Positions 30,511 to 39,653 are shown, numbered from the stretch's first letter. The stretch is 46,389 bases of DNA from a virus (IMGVR_UViG_2850808358_000009), one strand, 5' to 3'. The notes: generated by a model from the sequence alone, not told the origin. Made by a program: numbers and translations.

Positions 30511-30576
30511 ATTACAGGTTTACTTGTAATTACCTCACAGGCAACCTTGTTTGTCAAATACAGAAGTATCTGTAAT
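30511..30576. promoter_or_regulatory. Immunity operator region with two 20-bp near-palindromic operators and overlapping divergent promoters
   Basis: ATTACAGG-TTTA-CTTGTAAT (about 30511..30530) and AATACAGA-AGTA-TCTGTAAT (about 30557..30576); -35-like TTGTCA / TTGACA on opposite strands around 30551..30558; AAGGAG SD before the cI ATG. Confidence 0.55.
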
Positions 30577-30601
30577 CATCAATGACAGAAAAGGAGTCAA
30601 C

Positions 30602-31230
30602 ATGAATCTTGCCAACCGAGCTAAAAAACGCAGAACAGAACTAAACTTAACTCAGGTCGAAGTTGCGAAACGAGCGGGCATTAGCCAGCAGTCGATTGAA
30701 GCTATAGAGAATGGGAAAACACTTAAACCACGCAATCTTCTTGCTTTAGCGTCAGCTCTTGAATGCGATCCTAAATGGCTACTTCTTGGGGCGATGTTGT
30801 TACAGATTTCAACTACGGAGCCCGAAGGGTGCCTGTTCTAAGCTACGTACAAGCCGGGGCTTTCACAAGCGCTGAGCTACTTCGTGAAGAAGGCGATTTC
30901 GAATACATTCTCACCACGGCTGAGCTATCAGAAAGTTCATTTGCGCTACGTATACGTGGGGATTCAATGGAACCTGAATTTAAAGAGGGGGACATCGTTA
31001 TAATTGACACTGACGTATACCCTACTCCTGGTGAATTCGTTGCGGCATGTAACGGTAGCCACGAAGCAACGTTCAAAAAATACCGCCCGGTAGGGATTGG
31101 CGCTAAAGGTGAGGAAGACTTTGAACTTGTTCCATTGAATAGTGATTACCCTATTTGTCGCTCCTGGGAAAAACCAATTAAGATCATAGGGACAATGGTA
31201 GAACATCGCATATTCCGCAGAAAAAGATAA
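30602..31230 (+). pseudogene. CI-like repressor (HTH_XRE plus S24 LexA-type peptidase domain) interrupted by a frameshift between the domains
   Basis: ORF track has the HTH part (30551..30841) and the S24 part (30775..31230) in different frames overlapping by about 66 nt; the S24 part has the GDSMEP motif. Confidence 0.7.
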
Positions 31231-31252
31231 TCGCATCCTGACTACTAAACAA

Positions 31253-31276
31253 AGAGGGCTTAGGCCCTCTTTTTTA
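31253..31276 (+). terminator. Intrinsic terminator after the repressor gene
   Basis: Perfect 7-bp stem agagggc/gccctct with a 4-nt loop followed by T6. Confidence 0.65.
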
Positions 31277-31331
31277 TTACCCGTAAAAACAAGTAATTAG
31301 GTTAATAATGCATTTTATTACCAAAATACCT

Positions 31332-31361
31332 GTTGACGCATTTACAGGTTTGCTTGTATTT
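31332..31361 (+). promoter_or_regulatory. Third operator-like site overlapping a promoter-like TTGACG ... TATTTT (candidate OL/PL)
   Basis: TTTACAGGTTTGCTTGTATT matches the OR operator consensus at 17 of 20 positions; -35-like TTGACG sits just upstream. Confidence 0.4.
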
Positions 31362-31606
31362 TTAATCACAATAAGTAATCGCTCTTTAACAAACTGAACC
31401 GCGTGACAGGTAAGCCGCAGTACTCCTGGCAAAATGAAATGGCACCCGATGGGATCGAGGTAAGCGCCGAGTCCGTATGCGTACGGTAAGCGTAGAGGAC
31501 AACACCGCGACGAGCTGATAAGTCACGCAAGTTGAAACGCCCCGACGATGGGGCGCTTAGTTCCTTTAACTCTGGGCGGCCGGAAGGGTACCCATGCTTA
31601 AAGAAA

Positions 31607-32176
31607 TTACTGGTTGTAAGGATCGTAATCCGTGATTGCCTTCCCCGGATTTTCATCTTCAGAAGGCAGTCGGGCCTCTAAAGCATTTCGGTTGAACAGA
31701 TAGGAAGCCCTACAGTGCGAACAAACCATATTAACGGCTCGCCCAAGGCCTGGCTTAGTAACCAGACCTTCCGCTTGCAATATAGATTTTCTCTTTTGCT
31801 CGTAGCAATTGGGACAAATATAAACCGGAGATTGGTCAGCATCTGCAGAAAGCTTGCTGCGATAGACCAGAGTACCCCGCATAGGCTGGTAAAGTTCATA
31901 GCTCGCCGCTTCAGCGGCCCAGTTCTCTTGCTTTACTTTCTCATTTTCCAGTTCAACAATTTTCTCCTTAGCCGCAATCAGCAGCTCCTGAAGCGACATT
32001 TGCTGCATCTGAACATCCATTAACTTATCGAGTAAGGTGTGCGTCTTCTCTTTAACTGCATAGTCGACAGTCAGATTCTGAATCTCTCTTGCTGCTCCAA
32101 CCGCGCCTTTAATTGCTCCTCCCACGCCGGATAACGATTCAGTTATCCGGGAAAGAATTCCTTTTTCTTCAGACAT
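31607..32176 (-). CDS. Hypothetical coiled-coil protein with C-terminal CxxC...CxxC zinc ribbon (moron-like)
   Basis: 189 aa; opposite strand to the surrounding early operon; CPNC ... CSHC motifs; direct repeats upstream and a weak hairpin downstream. Confidence 0.5.
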   Translation of the reverse strand: MSEEKGILSRITESLSGVGGAIKGAVGAAREIQNLTVDYAVKEKTHTLLDKLMDVQMQQMSLQELLIAAKEKIVELENEKVKQENWAAEAASYELYQPMRGTLVYRSKLSADADQSPVYICPNCYEQKRKSILQAEGLVTKPGLGRAVNMVCSHCRASYLFNRNALEARLPSEDENPGKAITDYDPYNQ

Positions 32177-32315
32177 ATCTAATCTCTCTCAAACTGTAGG
32201 GGTGAAGAGATATTAGACGATTTCTCACTGTAGGGGTACAAGGAGAACCACCTCGCCTGATGTGGTTAAAAGCAGGCACTCGATGATATCCATGTAATTG
32301 CTGTGTGTAGTCTTT

Positions 32316-32342
32316 GCCCGCCGCAAGTGACGGGCTTTTTTA
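32316..32342 (+). terminator. Intrinsic terminator
   Basis: GCCCG ... CGGGC stem followed by T7. Confidence 0.55.
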
Positions 32343-32400
32343 TGTCTGAAAGCGCACTCGCAACAGCGTGCTCCCCGATATGAAAAAAGGAATACAACCG

Positions 32401-32550
32401 ATGAAACCTGAATACCTCCATCGACTGACGGGGCGCGATGTTCTCCGTTATCGCCGTAAAAACTTCGATTTGATGACCGGTCTGGCCGTTGCCACTGCGC
32501 TCGGTCTGATCATCACTTTCATTCTCCTTGTAGCGAGGACCACAGTATGA
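32401..32550 (+). CDS. Small membrane protein (C-terminal TM helix)
   Basis: About 49 aa from the ATG preceded by AAGGA; hydrophobic C-terminus; overlaps the next gene start (ATGA). Confidence 0.45.
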   Translation: MKPEYLHRLTGRDVLRYRRKNFDLMTGLAVATALGLIITFILLVARTTV

Positions 32551-33449
32551 GTTTAGAAACCAGTCTCGAACTTAATAATCAACTTCTGGCACAACATAAT
32601 GCGCTGCTTGAACGTCTTATCCGCACAATGGCATCAGGCATTGTTATGCATCCTGACACGATTTCACGAGTGCAGGAATGTCGGGATACAGCAACTGAAA
32701 CTGAAAATATGTCAGCGGCAATGACACTGGATGATCTGGAGTTCAGCGACGTTATCGCACTGGCTGGTTTCTACCCGGTAGCCACCCCTATCACAGAAGA
32801 CATGCTGCAACGTGCTGTTGCCTACCGTGATGCTGAAGGCGATAAACGAGTTGTTCAGATTGATGCTCTCGACAGCGCATTGCAGGGCGTCAAACGAGCC
32901 AGGGCGCTGCTTAAACCTGCTCTCCTGGACCTGTCCCGTAACATCCTTAAGTTCTGGGACGACCTGCCAACCGTCGGCGAGCGACGTGCTTTTGCCGAGC
33001 AGCTACTTGATGCACCTGCGGATGGGCGTGATGAAGTTAAGCCGAAAAAGGCCAGTAACAAGGATGGAGAACGCACGGGGCCGTTTTACGTCAAAAATGT
33101 ATCCGGCACAGCAGCCAGTGAACTCCACACCTTACGCAAGTTGAACGAGATGCTGAAAAAAGGCCATATCGAGATCAACCGTGTTGAGTACCTTCAGCTG
33201 CAGGAAGAATTTGCACGAAGAGACGCAGCAAATTCCAGCCAGAATAATGACGCCAAAGATGACCATACAATTGATTTCGCGGCACTACGCAAACAAGCTG
33301 AAGGGTTGATCCTCCAGTTAGCAAAAGGGGGCTACCGGGCAGAAGCTATTGCAATTCTGGAAAAACAGGGAGCCAGGAAACTTGGTGAAGTAACGGATGA
33401 AAATCTCGCTGAAGTAATCACCCTGGCTGAAAAAGCACTGGAGGGTTAA
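32547..33449 (+). CDS. Hypothetical protein of the PolA module
   Basis: 300 aa ORF translationally coupled to neighbours. Confidence 0.45.
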
Positions 33450-33451
33450 TC

Positions 33452-34753
33452 ATGCCAGACGTTCACGCACAACTTTCTCCATCATCAGCGCATCGATGGA
33501 TGCGCTGCCCAGGAAGTCTGGCGCTGGAGGCCACACAACCGGATAAAGAAACAACTTTTGCAATCGAGGGCACTGCAGCGCACGCGCTTGCTGAAAAAGT
33601 TCTACGAAACAGGCAAACCCACCCGGAACACTACGCCGGATGCAATGTTTCTATGTTTCTCGGCTCATACCCCCTTCGCGAAAATCCTGATGATACATCT
33701 GGCCCACAGGTGGATGATGAAATGGTCGAAGCCGTCGGCCGGTATGTTGATACGGTCTGGACTCTTGCAAAGAATAATGAACTATTGGTTGAACAACGTG
33801 TTGATTTCTCACATATAACGGGTGTGGAAGAATCTTTCGGAACTGCCGACGGCATAATCATCGCTGGTAACGAATTACAAATCCACGACCTGAAATATGG
33901 CAAAGGCGTCCGCATTGATGCAGAACAAAATGAGCAACTACAACTGTATGCTCTGGGTGCGCTTGAACAATTCAGCATGCTGTATGACTTTGAAACTGTA
34001 AGATTATTTATTCACCAACCAAGGCTCAACCACGTTTCAGAATGGTCGTTAACCGTACAGGAACTTCAGTCTTTCGGTGAACGGGCGCTGGAGGCCGCAA
34101 CCAGTGCGATCCTTGTTCTCAATATTGCTGAATGCGAAGGCATTGAGACACTACCGCTGGAAAACTTCATACCTGGAGAAAAACAGTGCCGCTTCTGTAA
34201 AGCAAAAGCTATTTGCACTGCCCAGAAAATGCAGCATTTACAAACAGCGGCCAGCGATTTTGAAGATCTGACAAAGCCTGTCAGCGAAATAATCACCAAT
34301 GCCAGCGCACGTGTACCTCTGTTAACCATTGAGCAGCTTGCAGAGATCTATAGCCAGGCCGACTTTATTGAATCCTGGCTAAAGGCAGTACGGGACCGGG
34401 TTCACAATGAACTCAATGCCGGACATCCGGTACCGGGGTTTAAACTGGTAACAGGAAAACAAGGTAACCGGGCCTGGAGTGACGAAGAGGCAGCTCGCGC
34501 ACTTCTGAAGGATCAGTTCAGGTACAAAACTGAAGAAGTATTCGACTTTAAACTTATTAGTCCCACAAAAGCCGAAAAACTTATCAAAAAGGCCAGTCCG
34601 CGCCGTTGGTCAAAAGTCGAGGCACTGATAACACGAGCTGATGGTAAACCCACCGTCGTTCCCGAGTCAGACCCACGCCCCGCACTCAATATCAACCCTG
34701 TAAATGATTTCGACGACGTATCCGACGATACGCTAACCGCAGACCTCATCTGA
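33452..34753 (+). CDS. DUF2800-like PD-(D/E)XK (RecB/Cas4-like) nuclease
   Basis: 433 aa; N-terminal [14 protein letters not shown] motif and C-terminal Cys cluster ([10 protein letters not shown]) as recalled for DUF2800 proteins of PolA modules. Confidence 0.6.
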
Positions 34754-34768
34754 TTTAAGGAAATCCCC

Positions 34769-35317
34769 ATGAAACTGAAGCTGAACAATGTTCGTCTGGC
34801 CTTCCCGTCTCTGTTTGAAGCTAAAACGGTAAACGGCGAAGGCGATCCGCGTTTCTCCGCAGTATTTTTAATGTCTCCCAAACACCCACAACTGGAAGAA
34901 ATCCGTAAAGCTATGAAGCAGGTAGCGAAGGAAAAATGGGGGGAGAAGTGGGAGTCCATTTATAACCAGCTGGAGAAAAAACTCAATCTGTGCCTGCATG
35001 ATGGTGATGAAAAAGCAGAGTATGAAGGCTTTCCCGGCAATTTCTTCCTGAACGCTGCTAACAAAGCGCGCCCAGCTGTTCTTGATCGCGATCGTTCGCC
35101 ACTAATTCAGGCTGATGGACGTCCCTATGCAGGGTGCTATGTAAACGCCGTTATCGATATCTGGGCACAGGACAATAATTTCGGTAAACGCATTAATGCC
35201 TCACTCGGCGGAGTCCAGTTCCTGCGAGACGGCGATGCATTCGCTGGCGGCGGAGTGGCAAGCGCTGACGATTTCGACGATATCAGCGAAGGTGCTGATG
35301 CTGAAGCACTAATTTAA
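34769..35317 (+). CDS. DUF2815-like protein (candidate ssDNA-binding protein)
   Basis: 182 aa with acidic C-terminal tail; position between DUF2800 and the polymerase. Confidence 0.5.
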   Translation: MKLKLNNVRLAFPSLFEAKTVNGEGDPRFSAVFLMSPKHPQLEEIRKAMKQVAKEKWGEKWESIYNQLEKKLNLCLHDGDEKAEYEGFPGNFFLNAANKARPAVLDRDRSPLIQADGRPYAGCYVNAVIDIWAQDNNFGKRINASLGGVQFLRDGDAFAGGGVASADDFDDISEGADAEALI

Positions 35318-35392
35318 CCCTTCTTCATAGACGCCCGGTTACACGCCGGGTGTTTTTGCAAAGGGGATGACAACCTTTTGCAAAAGCATACA

Positions 35393-35501
35393 TTGACATC
35401 CGCGATAACCAATGGGTATATTCCGCTTCATGGTGCTCAAAACACCTTTTCTACTAGCGGAAACCGCGCCCGTCAGTCATGCGGATTTTTTATGTCCATG
35501 A
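35393..35501 (+). promoter_or_regulatory. Promoter (TTGACA-N18-TATATT), leaderless micro-ORF and hairpin plus T6, upstream of Bro-N paralog 1
   Basis: Near-consensus sigma-70 hexamers; ATG within a few nt of the predicted start site; 23-codon ORF (about 35430..35501); GCGG-aaa-CCGC and a second small hairpin before T6. Conserved in copy 2. Confidence 0.5.
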
Positions 35502-35643
35502 TATTGAGAATTCAATGGTCGGGCGTGCGGCTAATACAACACCCTTCCGAAGGGAAATACGCCCGCCGACTAGTAGCGGTTTTGAGCGCCCGACCACCCT
35601 CTCAAAAAGGGTAAATTCAAAATATCTACTAGGGCATAAAACC

Positions 35644-36417
35644 ATGAGTACCCAACTCGTATTCAAATCCCACATTCTCGAAACGATCGAACATAACGGC
35701 AAATCTTGGTTCACCGCTGCCACTCTGGCGACCGCGCTGGAATACTCACGAACGGACTCAGTCGCTCGTATTTATGACCGTAATCGGGATGAGTTTTCAG
35801 TTGAAATGACAACGACCGTCAAATTGACGGTCGTTAGGAAAACCGGCTCCGTCCAAATGAATAACCGCATTTTCTCTCTACGCGGTGCTCACCTGGTAGC
35901 GATGTTCGCAACAACGCCAGTAGCAAAAGAATTTCGCCGTTGGGTGCTTGATCTTATAGAGAAAGAAACCGCTATTCCGCAGTCCTCCACGGTACTGGCG
36001 CCGCACAGGGAGTGTCTGCCGAAAATGGTTTACCACCACAGTAGCAAATACAACCCGTACAGAGCCTACGCATGGAACGGAGAGAAGAACGTTTACGTCG
36101 GGTGCTATCCAACCGTGGATGAGGCTGTCGCTGCGCAGAAGGACTTTTACCGGAACGGCAGCACAAAGCGTATTCAGAAAGTGCAGACAGCAATCAATGA
36201 CGCAGAGAAGGAAATGTTCATCAACAATCTCCGCGCCATCTGTCATAACTTCCGGCGCATCAATGAAATCTGGCGCTCGCAGTTAATGCCTGCCCTCGAA
36301 AAAATGGATTCGAAACTGGTTTACCAGTTGCATGATCGTTTCAGCGACAGCATGTGTGCTCTGCCGACCATAGAAGACCGCATCGGCAGATATATTCCAC
36401 CCACTTTACCTCGTTAA
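35644..36417 (+). CDS. Bro-N domain protein (antirepressor-like), paralog 1
   Basis: 258 aa; N-terminal Bro-N-like region; C-terminal two-thirds nearly identical to 39654..40430; start moved to the internal ATG. Confidence 0.65.
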   Translation: MSTQLVFKSHILETIEHNGKSWFTAATLATALEYSRTDSVARIYDRNRDEFSVEMTTTVKLTVVRKTGSVQMNNRIFSLRGAHLVAMFATTPVAKEFRRWVLDLIEKETAIPQSSTVLAPHRECLPKMVYHHSSKYNPYRAYAWNGEKNVYVGCYPTVDEAVAAQKDFYRNGSTKRIQKVQTAINDAEKEMFINNLRAICHNFRRINEIWRSQLMPALEKMDSKLVYQLHDRFSDSMCALPTIEDRIGRYIPPTLPR

Positions 36418-36483: not shown

Positions 36484-39411
36484 TTGTCTGAAAACATTCT
36501 ATGGGGCGACCTGGAAACCTATTGCGAAATCCCTATTACGAACGGTACCCATGCGTATGCCGAAGGCGTTGAAGTGATGCTGTTCGCATGGGCTATCAAC
36601 GACGGGCCCGTAAACGTGTGGGATATCACTGCCGGTGGTGGTATTCCACACGGCTTATACGAAGCAATCGCAGCCCCTGAGACCCTGCTTTATTTTCATA
36701 ACTCTCACTTCGACCGCACCGTCCTGCGTTATGCAATGCCGCGACTGGCACCGCCAGTCGAACGTTGGCGCGACACAATGGTGCAGGCGCTGGCGCACGG
36801 CCTCCCGGGGTCTCTGGGGGAACTCTGCGAAATACTCGGCGTCCCGCAAGACAAAGCGAAGGACAAAGAAGGTAAAGCGCTGATCCAGCTGTTCTGTAAG
36901 CCACGCCCGAAAAACAGCAAACTGCGTCGGGCCACCAGTAAAACCCACCCAGAAGAATGGCGGCGCTTTGTTGCTTACGCCGGGCTGGATATCGAGGCAA
37001 TGCGCGAAGTCTATAAACGTCTGCCGAAGTGGAATTATCAGGGGACAGAACTGGCGCTCTGGCATCGTGATCAGCAGATCAACGACCGGGGCGTCTGCAT
37101 GGACATTCAACTCGCGCGCGCTGCGATCGAAGCGGTAGACCAGGAGCAAAAGCGCCTGGCAAAGCGTACACAGGAAATGACTGATGGCGAAGTGCAGGCA
37201 GCCACACAACGGGACGCGTTGATTAAGCACATCGTTGAATCCTACGGTGTGGAGCTACCAGACATGCAACGCAGTACCCTGGAACGTCGTATAGCCGACC
37301 CCGATTTACCATCTGCCGTGAAAGAACTGCTGGCTATCCGCCAGCAAGCCAGTACTACCAGCACCAGTAAATACAAGGCACTGATGAAAGGCGTAAGCCA
37401 CGACGGGCGCTTACGCGGTACGCTACAGTTCTGCGGGGCGTCACGTACCGGGCGCTGGGCCGGACGGCTATTCCAGCCCCAGAATCTTCCCCGCCCTTCA
37501 CTAAAACAGGAACAAATAGACGAAGGCATCGAAGCACTGAAAGCCGGATGTGCAGACCTGCTGTTTGACAATATCATGGAACTAACCAGTTCAGCGTTAC
37601 GTGGCTGCATTATCGCGCCAACAGGTAAAAAACTGGTGGTAAGTGACTTGTCGAACATTGAAGGCCGTATGCTGGCATGGCTGGCGGGAGAAGAATGGAA
37701 ACTGAATGCATTCAGAGAGTACGACGCCGGAACGGGTCCGGACTTATATAAACTGGCGTATGCAAAAGCTTACGGAATTGAAGTTGAGCGCGTCACCAAA
37801 GACCAGCGCCAGATAGGTAAAGTGCTGGAATTGGCTTGCATAGCTCCGGATACTTTAGTGCTCACCGATAAAGGCTATAAGCCGCTTGTTAGTATTTCGG
37901 GCGCGGATTTGTTATGGGACGGAGAAGAATGGGTAAAACACGAAGGACTGATTTACAGGGGGTACAAAGCCTTAATATCACTGGACGGAGCAAAAATGAC
38001 CCCGGATCACCAGGTGCTAACCCCTACTGGATGGAAGCTGGCAAACCTTATCGCTTTAAACAAAAATACGCTTCACCAAAGCCTGGAACTTGCTTCGGAG
38101 AACTTACCGTTATCAAAGAACTGGAAAAAGTACCCGGAAAAGACCGAAGGATACTTGTCAAATGCAAATGTGGTGCAATGCCTCACACCGCAACAATCAG
38201 CAATCTCCTTAAAGGGAAAAGTACCCGATGTAACATTTGCGCAAAGAAAAAGCATAACGAGTATCGTAAAAAATTCTTATGCTATGCGGATGCTATTGCA
38301 GATGACGAAACCCGTCGCAGGCTACTTAACCGATTGTCTGCCGCAATCAGCCGTTGCCATAAACCCACCAACAGGTTGTTTCACAACTACGGCGGTCGGG
38401 GGATCTACGTTTGTCAGCTATGGCAGGAAGATAAAAGAGCTTTTTTGCTACACGTCAGGGAAATCAAAGGGTTTAATGACCCAAAGTTGGAAATGGATCG
38501 CATCGACAATAACAAAGGCTACGAACCGGGTAATATCCAGTTCGTCTCCAAAGCAGACAATAACCGCAACAGAAGAAAAATCGCAGACCTGCAAAAGCGT
38601 ATCGACGAGCTGGAGCGATGTTTACGACATTGCACATGCGGGGCCTCGAAACAGATTCACGATTAAAACCGACTCAGGACATTTAATCGTTCACAACTGC
38701 GGGTACGGTGGTGGTGTGTCGGCCTTCATCACTTTTGCACTGGTTTACAGTCTCGATCTCGACGAGCTGGCGAACGCCGCACTGCCAAACATTCCCCGCG
38801 ATGTTATCCGCGAGGCGAAAAGCTGGTACTACGAATCGGTTAAACGTAAGTCAACCTACGGCCTTTCTGAACGGGTATTTATCGCCTGCGACTCACTTAA
38901 ACGTCTCTGGCGCAGGGCGCACCCGGCGACCTGCGATTTCTGGTACGAACTGGAGCGCACCGTCCGCACTGCAATCGCCACACCGCAAAAAACATTGTAT
39001 TGCGGTTATCTTAAAATCCGCCGCGATGGCGCGTGGCTGCGCATACAGCTACCATCCGGACGCGCGGTATGCTACCCGTCTCCGGTTATCGAAAAAGGGA
39101 ATATCACCTACATGGGTGTTAACTCTTATTCGCGTAAATGGCAACGACTCAAAACCTACGGCGGAAAGCTGGTAGAGAACGTCACCCAGGCGGCCGCCCG
39201 CGACGTTCTGGCCGGAAACATGCCGCTTATCGAAGATGCCGGTTACAGCATTGTGCTGACGGTACACGATGAAATTATAAGTGAGGCCCCTGACTCACCC
39301 GATTACTCAGCAGAACATGTCAGCCAGTTACTGGCAACCGTTCCTGACTGGGCCACGAGCATTCCACTAAACGCCGGAGGATTCGAATCTTACAGATACC
39401 GGAAAGATTGA
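36484..39411 (+). CDS. Family A DNA polymerase (3'-5' exonuclease plus polymerase domains) containing an intein
   Basis: 975 aa single ORF, TTG start after a GGAGG SD; DLET exonuclease motif near the N-terminus; after removing 37837..38697 the junction reads [21 protein letters not shown], which fits PolA motif B. Confidence 0.75.
37837..38697 (+). other. Intein within polymerase motif B (Cys-initiated, ends His-Asn, next extein residue Cys)
   Basis: Starts [17 protein letters not shown] with a TPDHQVLT block-B-like motif; ends [27 protein letters not shown] followed by C; 287 codons in the polymerase frame. Confidence 0.7.
37914..38666 (+). CDS. HNH-type homing endonuclease in the -1 frame relative to the polymerase, nested inside the intein
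   Basis: Zinc-binding FGELTVIKE...CKCG...CNICAKK region and an HNH-like motif [27 protein letters not shown]. The protein-like part spans roughly 38073..38613; true start unknown. Confidence 0.6.
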
Positions 39412-39531
39412 CATCCGCGATGACCAATAGGTATATTCCGCTTCATGGTGCTGAACACACCTATACAAGCGGAAACCGCGCCCGTCAGTCATGCGGATTT
39501 TTTATGTCCATTTTCAGATATGGTCGGGTAG
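39408..39531 (+). promoter_or_regulatory. Second copy of the promoter / leaderless micro-ORF / terminator element, upstream of Bro-N paralog 2
   Basis: Same TTGACA-N18-TATATT and hairpin plus T6. The polymerase stop codon TGA lies inside the -35 hexamer. Micro-ORF about 39445..39531 (28 codons) differs from copy 1 by a frame-preserving 3-nt indel. Confidence 0.5.
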
Positions 39532-39653
39532 CGCGTATACCGAAAAACAGCCGAAAGGCTAAGGATACGGGCCGTTCTTGTATGCGGTGTTCAAGTACCT
39601 GACCGCCCTGCTGAACACAGGGATTCTGAACAAAAATACAAGGACATAAAACT

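Follow-up and report, generated by a model that had tools for sequence, protein, structure and literature searches.

The locus considered here raises two questions, namely what is encoded by a gene that lies antisense to the surrounding early operon of a prophage, and how such a gene is expressed and controlled from within that operon. The window, by which we mean the whole stretch of viral DNA analysed (46,389 nucleotides, IMGVR_UViG_2850808358_000009), is a complete E. coli prophage. A sequence-only reading had placed in its immunity-proximal region an opposite-strand, moron-like gene for a 189-aa protein, preceded by two direct repeats, and had suggested that genes in this position often serve superinfection exclusion or defence. 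We conclude that the gene is very probably a single-protein abortive-infection defence of the Rip1 family, expressed by the prophage from a sieB-type promoter and possibly subject to a sas-like shut-off. The locus is in this sense largely explained: the identity of the gene already has a published answer, and the promoter/antisense cassette had been recognised before at sieB in lambda and P22. The practical gain is modest, consisting of better annotation of prophage defence and of another natural Rip1 variant for specificity studies.

A Rip1-family protein encoded on the minus strand

The antisense reading frame was confirmed at positions 31607..32176 of the minus strand, with an ATG start and a product of 189 aa. 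From the N-terminus, this product is made up of an amphipathic helix rich in Gly and Ala, then a long coiled-coil helix, a beta/zinc-ribbon domain in the C-terminal part and a disordered tail; the earlier description as a coiled coil plus zinc ribbon was a fair one, as two long predicted helices are joined to a beta-rich domain with an invariant set of four cysteines. Remote homology and structure prediction had been proposed as a check on the gene, and phmmer, BLASTP and Foldseek all give Rip1. A phmmer search against PDB sequences returned entry 9oox, 'ring interacting pore 1 (Rip1)' (E=3.4e-47, residues 3-166), which is the cryo-EM structure of Rip1 of phage HK446 in complex with the small terminase of T6. 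By BLASTP, the protein is 52% identical to HK446 gp37 over residues 1-166 (E=6e-59) and 28% identical to gp30 of Pseudomonas phage JBD30 (E=1e-16). The gene for JBD30 gp30 is flanked by those for the small and the large terminase, on the strand opposite to theirs, and this antisense position fits the founding Pseudomonas Rip1 as described in PMC13434031. An AlphaFold model built on 14 homologues, of moderate confidence (mean pLDDT 69.7), has two helices (residues 4-34 and 39-90) and, after them, a C-terminal domain rich in beta structure. In Foldseek, this model matched 9oox_M with E=1.3e-10, a target-normalised TM score of 0.91 and an rmsd of 2.0 A over 128 columns, and the matches ranking after it were noise.

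The residues that are conserved in the family point in the same direction. Two CxxC motifs (C121, C124 and C152, C155) contribute four cysteines that are invariant in the 14 homologues, and W86, Y93, Y105-R106 and S131-x-L133-Q134 are likewise invariant in close homologues. The CxxC...CxxC arrangement recurs in 153 of the 166 family proteins collected. Residues 5-38 are Gly/Ala-rich, have a hydrophobic moment of 0.35-0.45 and are nearly identical in HK446 Rip1. The family is a large one, with 1,275 representatives at E<=0.001 in a library clustered at 50% identity, and thus at least that many clusters. The features by which a Rip1 protein can be tested here, namely sequence similarity, fold, an N-terminal amphipathic helix, CxxC...CxxC and encoding by a prophage, were all found. 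The opposite-strand gene is a clear member of the Rip1 family, and a further member of it rather than a new kind of system; its family membership, its anatomy and the homology of its promoter/antisense cassette are established by the present analysis. A functional name is thereby given to a gene for which Pfam, NCBIfam and PADLOC recognise no family, PHROGs offers only phrog_1244 ('unknown function') and RefSeq uses the label 'hypothetical protein'.

The Rip1 ('ring interacting pore 1') proteins form a prophage defence family that was reportedly described, recently, by Patel et al. in Nature (651:1060, 2026). In published work, Rip1 is an experimentally studied anti-phage pore former carried by prophages (PMC13434031). 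According to three secondary sources, Rip1 is non-toxic alone; escape mutants fall in the portal in the case of Pseudomonas phages, and within the small terminase in that of E. coli phages; 12 Rip1 subunits encircle the 11-mer small-terminase ring, the C-terminal half touching the ring and the N-terminal amphipathic helices making the pore; and liposomes lose dye through this pore, which also damages the inner membrane, whereby infection is aborted (PMC13434031, PMC12908700, PMC13601566).

By analogy with this literature on HK446 and Pseudomonas Rip1, the protein of the window, which shares only 52% identity with the characterised HK446 protein, would act by the same pore mechanism. In a lysogen, rip1 would be transcribed on its own from the sieB-type promoter, starting at about 32203 and ending at the hairpin at 31558-31529, and the resulting protein would be harmless by itself, as its homology with HK446 Rip1 suggests. 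Once a superinfecting phage reaches its late phase, its small-terminase or portal ring would template a Rip1 ring of about 12 subunits via the C-terminal zinc-ribbon domain. In this ring, the N-terminal amphipathic helices would then gather into an inner-membrane pore, and cell death would precede the completion of the superinfecting phage's progeny. Of the earlier suggestion of superinfection exclusion or defence, the second part stands, through membership in the Rip1 family, and exclusion at entry does not: by homology, the action would be abortive infection by a pore that late phage ring proteins trigger.

On a different reading, the protein would work for the phage's own cycle, for instance as a regulator of the terminase or of lysis timing, and not in defence. 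Family members do bind small-terminase and portal rings, and Pseudomonas Mu-like phages have the gene between their terminase genes. Here and in lambdoid phages, however, it lies in the immunity-proximal moron slot, antisense to early genes and behind a lysogen-type promoter, and both defence phenotypes and escape mutants are reported in the literature (PMC13434031). Moreover, the copy of the prophage in strain VL40 (L003) is broken by four IS elements (IS1, ISEc11, IS600 and IS2) and several of its structural genes are broken, yet its rip1 locus is intact and 100% identical to that of the window, which is consistent with a defence gene kept in a decaying prophage. We regard a role in the phage's own cycle as very improbable, and a Rip1-type defence remains the preferred reading.

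Comparison with the nearest known systems shows what is shared and what is particular to the window. With HK446 Rip1 (gp37), the protein has in common the N-terminal amphipathic helix, the coiled coil and the Cys4 zinc ribbon, and the two genes have in common the upstream cassette with both repeats and an antisense position in the early-left operon. HK446, however, is a lambdoid siphovirus with rip1 just downstream of N, whereas the window phage is non-lambdoid and carries rip1 directly after the early-left promoter leader; unlike in HK446, an RprA-like terminator comes next to the cassette, and the protein bears an extra C-terminal tail of 23 residues (..TDYDPYNQ). The Rip1 proteins of Pseudomonas Mu-like prophages (JBD30 gp30, D3112 orf25) are homologous, of the same length class and encoded on the strand opposite to their neighbours, but they belong to the late region between the small- and large-terminase genes and come without a sieB-type cassette. 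HkaP of HK620 (also of HK629 and HK630), labelled 'putative superinfection exclusion protein', is a Rip1-family member of about 29% identity in the same slot and with the same cassette, although the protein is far more diverged. Like HK446 rip1, HK620 hkaP is located inside the PL operon downstream of N.

The upstream repeats and the sieB-type promoter

The direct repeats claimed upstream of the start codon exist as two exact 11-nt copies of ACTGTAGGGGT at 32193-32203 and 32227-32237, spaced by 34 nt from start to start, and no further exact copy occurs in the 46-kb window. The 'TCTCA' prefix attributed to them is imperfect, one copy having TCTCAAACTG and the other TCTCACTG. The proximal repeat (32193..32203, minus strand; ACCCCTACAGT on the gene strand) would form positions +1 to +11 of the mRNA, and the distal repeat (32227..32237, minus strand) overlaps a weak -35 position (TACCCC, 17-nt spacer). 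Alignment to P22 places the -10 hexamer of a sieB-type promoter, TAATAT, at 32210..32215 and predicts a 5' UTR of 27 nt at 32177..32203, both on the minus strand. Transcription would accordingly be expected to start at about 32203, with the A that opens the proximal repeat; in the P22 record NC_002371.2, the sieB promoter and a 'sieB RNA start site' are annotated at the equivalent A. At the other end of the gene, a 9-bp GC-rich hairpin followed by UUUCAACUU (31529..31558, minus strand; fold z=-2.97) forms the predicted terminator of the rip1 transcript and is bidirectional. The claim that the gene is transcribed independently is supported by these two elements, a promoter homologous to the annotated P22 sieB promoter and a minus-strand hairpin downstream of the stop codon.

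The repeats belong to a longer conserved unit. A cassette of about 95 nt that holds both of them is 81-86% identical to the upstream regions of lambda and P22 sieB. Both repeats, with their 34-nt period, are kept upstream of HK446 rip1, HK620 hkaP, lambda sieB and P22 sieB and of the gene for a Rip1 homologue (61% protein identity) in a Yersinia prophage remnant, and the spacer between them diverges. Conservation of the repeats across phages in which the spacer diverges indicates that they are more than chance. When IMG/VR was searched for the two repeats, at least 120 viral contigs were obtained; among the matches listed, the gene directly downstream of the cassette is of SieB type in 83, of Rip1 or HkaP type in 24 and of another type in 9. 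Across 47 distinct cassette variants, again among the matches listed, the repeats, a -10 of the form T-A-n-n-n-T and an upstream block are conserved and the spacer is variable. Two relatives of the same phage type as the window (L004 and L005), whose Rip1-family proteins are 51-64% identical, have only one degenerate copy of the repeat and retain the gene, so that the second repeat unit looks like an old 34-nt duplication. From these comparisons, we read the repeats as conserved parts of the known sieB promoter and sas antisense-RNA cassette and not as a new operator-like element. Within it, the repeated decamer could act as core promoter sequence, as a protein-binding site or as an RNA-level element. 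A LexA box was considered and rejected, as the CTGT within the repeats lacks a palindromic partner.

It may also be asked whether the repeats are binding sites of a phage or host transcription factor that regulates the sieB-type promoter, one lying over the -35 and the other over +1. Such sites would agree with the invariance of both repeats at a fixed 34-nt period in the 47 distinct variants among the matches listed, in which the spacer varies, and with the non-consensus -35 (TACCCC), which is typical of factor-dependent promoters. On the other hand, no candidate regulator accompanies the cassette, which functions in lambdoid phages as well as here, against an unrelated replication-module background and with different repressors. 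The repeats are also inside the sas RNA, so their conservation could be RNA-level, and the relatives with a single degenerate copy (L004 and L005) still keep the gene. We therefore consider dedicated factor sites possible but doubtful, and continue to treat the repeats as parts of the sieB-type cassette.

The placement of the gene also agrees with what had been proposed, a moron of the opposite strand close to the immunity region: the gene fills the slot that sieB takes in lambda and P22, antisense inside the early-left unit. In two relatives (L005 and L006), early genes of the opposite strand flank rip1 on either side. Two general points emerge: in enterobacterial phages, Rip1 genes are found in the classical sieB slot with the sieB promoter/sas cassette ahead of them, and the cassette has also found its way into a non-lambdoid phage.

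The SieB/Esc/sas system of P22 and lambda is said to have been treated by Ranade and Poteete in 1993. It shares with the window the genomic slot together with the promoter, the start-site repeat, the distal repeat, the upstream helices and the antisense region, which are 81-86% identical, and both it and Rip1 are prophage-expressed abortive systems against superinfecting phages. The two proteins themselves are unrelated. This bears on a further reading, in which the window protein would be a SieB analogue working by the SieB mechanism, that is, as a membrane protein that stops macromolecular synthesis. The position and the promoter/antisense cassette are indeed those of lambda and P22 sieB, and a short C-terminal YDPYN matches lambda SieB; the protein homology, however, is limited to a local match of 29 residues to lambda SieB, and the coding regions show no DNA similarity, on which grounds homology to SieB was rejected. 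Furthermore, SieB starts with hydrophobic membrane segments, whereas the window protein combines a soluble-type helix with a zinc ribbon and has clear homology to Rip1. Action by the SieB mechanism is thus largely refuted by the sequence and appears to us to have almost no probability, which leaves pore formation of the Rip1 type as the reading we follow. A search of rip1 for an Esc-like internal start gave in-frame Met53, Met57 and Met60, which lack a recognisable ribosome-binding site and are not conserved.

The C-terminal tail that contains the YDPYN match (residues 167-189, 31607-31675 on the minus strand) is 23 residues long and disordered, and ends in TDYDPYNQ. A YDP[YF] motif is also found in the tails of L004, L005, one distant family member and JBD30 gp30, whose YDPF resembles the YDPY of the window protein, and a YDPY tail is present in only 6 of the 166 family proteins. 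The unrelated lambda SieB has ..SYDPYN near its C-terminus, without DNA similarity to the rip1 tail, and the likeness may be due to chance.

Within the rip1 coding region, a third copy of the repeat occurs in inverted orientation with one mismatch (31706-31721, minus strand), at the codons of the second CxxC. It has a 14-nt complementarity (13/14) to the distal-repeat region. This copy is probably a chance occurrence, because the encoded residues are not conserved.

A predicted antisense RNA, early-left transcription and the RprA-like terminator

On the plus strand, the region 32168..32300 (ends approximate) is homologous to the sas antisense RNA of P22, which is the reverse complement of the cassette. 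The rip1 5' UTR and start codon have their complement in this sas-like region, which also holds both repeats and a pseudoknot. The published P22 sas sequence (P22A-sas), of 127 nt, contains CUGUAGGGGU twice (PMC13397905 Table 2). In the literature on this system, sas is reported to block translation of SieB while still allowing Esc.

The pseudoknot-type structure is indicated by covariation and consists of two interleaved helices, AACCAC/GTGGTT and GCCTG/CAGGC, at 32246..32277, upstream of the promoter and within the 3' part of the sas-like RNA. Among the 21 distinct IMG/VR variants in the matches listed, 5 of the 11 base pairs change on both sides. The helix cells are paired in 85.7% of cases, as against 20-45% with the partners slid, and none of 500 shuffles reached the covariation score. 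RNAalifold, run on six sas-region sequences, detected no covariation, which was seen only with the 21 distinct variants. To our knowledge, these interleaved helices of the sieB-type cassette have no published description.

The gene had been placed between the cI terminator and a plus-strand terminator, and both are there: the former was found by terminator scan (31251..31280, plus strand, comprising 31251-31272 and a T run) and the latter by alignment to the RprA model. Just past the cI terminator, the promoter scan gave TTGACG-18-TATTTT at 31333..31362 (plus strand), in the position of an early-left or PL-equivalent promoter. Between its hexamers, at 31342-31358, a sequence match identifies a putative copy of the cI operator, TTACAGGTTTGCTTGTA, which agrees at 16/17 positions with the palindromic OR copy between cro and cI (30512-30528). 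We take 31333-31362 as the early-left promoter and operator; it sits in the immunity-specific module, left of a mosaic boundary at 31381. A boxA-like element, CGCTCTTTAACAA, lies at that boundary (31380..31392, plus strand), about 12 nt past the predicted early-left start, and its exact 12-mer occurs once in the window. Judged by the rrn and lambda consensus, CGCTCTTTAACAA is presumably a near-perfect boxA, and no N-like gene that might use it was recognised. The leader at 31369-31606 was considered as a structured RNA and rejected, since its folding does not exceed that of shuffled sequences (z=+0.5) and Rfam gave no match; a GGTAAGCG motif is repeated within it.

Early-left transcripts would cross the bidirectional hairpin at 31529-31558, then the whole of rip1 in antisense and then the cassette, beyond which they would meet the plus-strand terminator and, after it, the early genes from 32401 onward. 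A promoter scan gave no promoter for a plus-strand sas-like or RprA-like RNA, and inspection was likewise unconvincing; the antisense RNA would therefore have to come from read-through of the early operon. By analogy with P22 sas, we infer that rip1 may be shut off in antisense. Upon induction, early transcripts crossing rip1 would yield the sas-like RNA over its 5' UTR and start codon, and this RNA would stop new Rip1 synthesis. Thus rip1 would be on in the lysogen and turned down at induction, by transcriptional interference together with the sas-like RNA. The antisense RNA would leave pre-existing Rip1 protein in place, and self-compatibility may instead arise from the prophage's own terminase or portal going unrecognised. 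The locus suggests a means for a prophage to restrict self-targeting by the abortive-infection gene that it carries.

The plus-strand intrinsic terminator (32296..32341, plus strand) is at the same time a look-alike of the 3' domain of the sRNA RprA (Rfam RF00034). The 24-nt AATTGCTGTGTGTAGTCTTTGCCC is an exact match to the Rfam RprA consensus, and a hairpin, GCCCGCC/GACGGGC, is followed by T6 and ends near 32341. The RF00034 match as a whole (32232-32345) scores 47.5 bits (E=3e-5), below the gathering score of 70, and true similarity is confined to the 3' seed and the terminator. A simple terminator scan did not detect this hairpin, the stem of which covaries in L004 and L005, and in L005 the RprA-like element is conserved at about 5870-5915 on the minus strand. 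By blastn, the element is 82.6% identical to the rprA annotated on the chromosome of about all E. coli genomes, and some 180 genomes have a full prophage copy. Similar RprA-like modules were noticed in Erwinia Ea9-2-like and Aeromonas phages.

The likeness to RprA thus concerns the 3' seed region of 24 nt and the layout of the terminator; in contrast to the sRNA, the window element is prophage-borne, its 5' two-thirds are non-homologous and it has no visible promoter of its own. No phage-internal targets of the RprA-like seed were found. A broader proposal would be that the sieB-type cassette, with its pseudoknot, its two 10-nt repeats of 34-nt period and its -10 element, is a portable module, expressed in the lysogen and silenced during the phage's own lytic growth, into which different abortive-infection cargo (SieB, Rip1, HkaP) is swapped, and that it is fused in this phage lineage to a mimic of the RprA 3' domain, whereby early transcripts would terminate in an Hfq-binding sRNA, which would silence rip1 and at the same time disturb the host's RprA regulon (rpoS, csgD). 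We offer this as speculation of low probability.

The prophage and its mosaic setting

Of 5,426 complete E. coli genomes, 169 have DNA matches to the locus. Besides its complete identity to the region of strain VL40, the rip1 locus has 99%-identical counterparts in three induced phages, vB_EcoM-606R2, 689R2 and 611R5. The structural module of the prophage is of myovirus type, including the tail genes, and a Q antiterminator and lambda-type lysis genes are encoded as well. Its replication module comprises a DUF5906 primase, DUF2800, DUF2815 and PolA. Identity to phage 606R2 begins abruptly at 31381, and 31381-35350 is therefore a module travelling with different immunity regions.

Several further features of the prophage were observed. 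The cI gene (30602-31230), which encodes a LexA-family protein with an S24 peptidase domain, has a 1-nt deletion at 30787, in a G5 run, relative to VL40. Through the deletion, the HTH domain is left in one ORF (30551-30841) and the peptidase domain in another (30775-31230), which reflects either a sequencing error or a truncated and possibly non-inducible repressor.

The PolA reading frame (36484-39411, plus strand), which encodes a family A DNA polymerase, contains an in-frame insertion of about 287 aa at 37837-38697, which ends in LIVHN|C; both of its ends are what we take to be typical intein ends. The insertion has no Pfam match and is absent from phage 606R2, and in RefSeq the PolA gene of VL40 is given as two partial pseudogenes. 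An ORF of 250 aa with an HNH-like motif (37914-38666) overlaps the insertion in another frame.

Finally, the Rfam family sRNA-Xcc1 has two matches above threshold on the plus strand, at 35517-35603 and 39522-39612, with 70 and 66 bits, respectively. The first lies inside the ORF 35479-36417, the VL40 counterpart of which is annotated as 'BRO-N domain-containing protein'. The two matches fall one in each of two regions that correspond to the same stretch of the VL40 prophage, at 99.9% and 82.6% identity.
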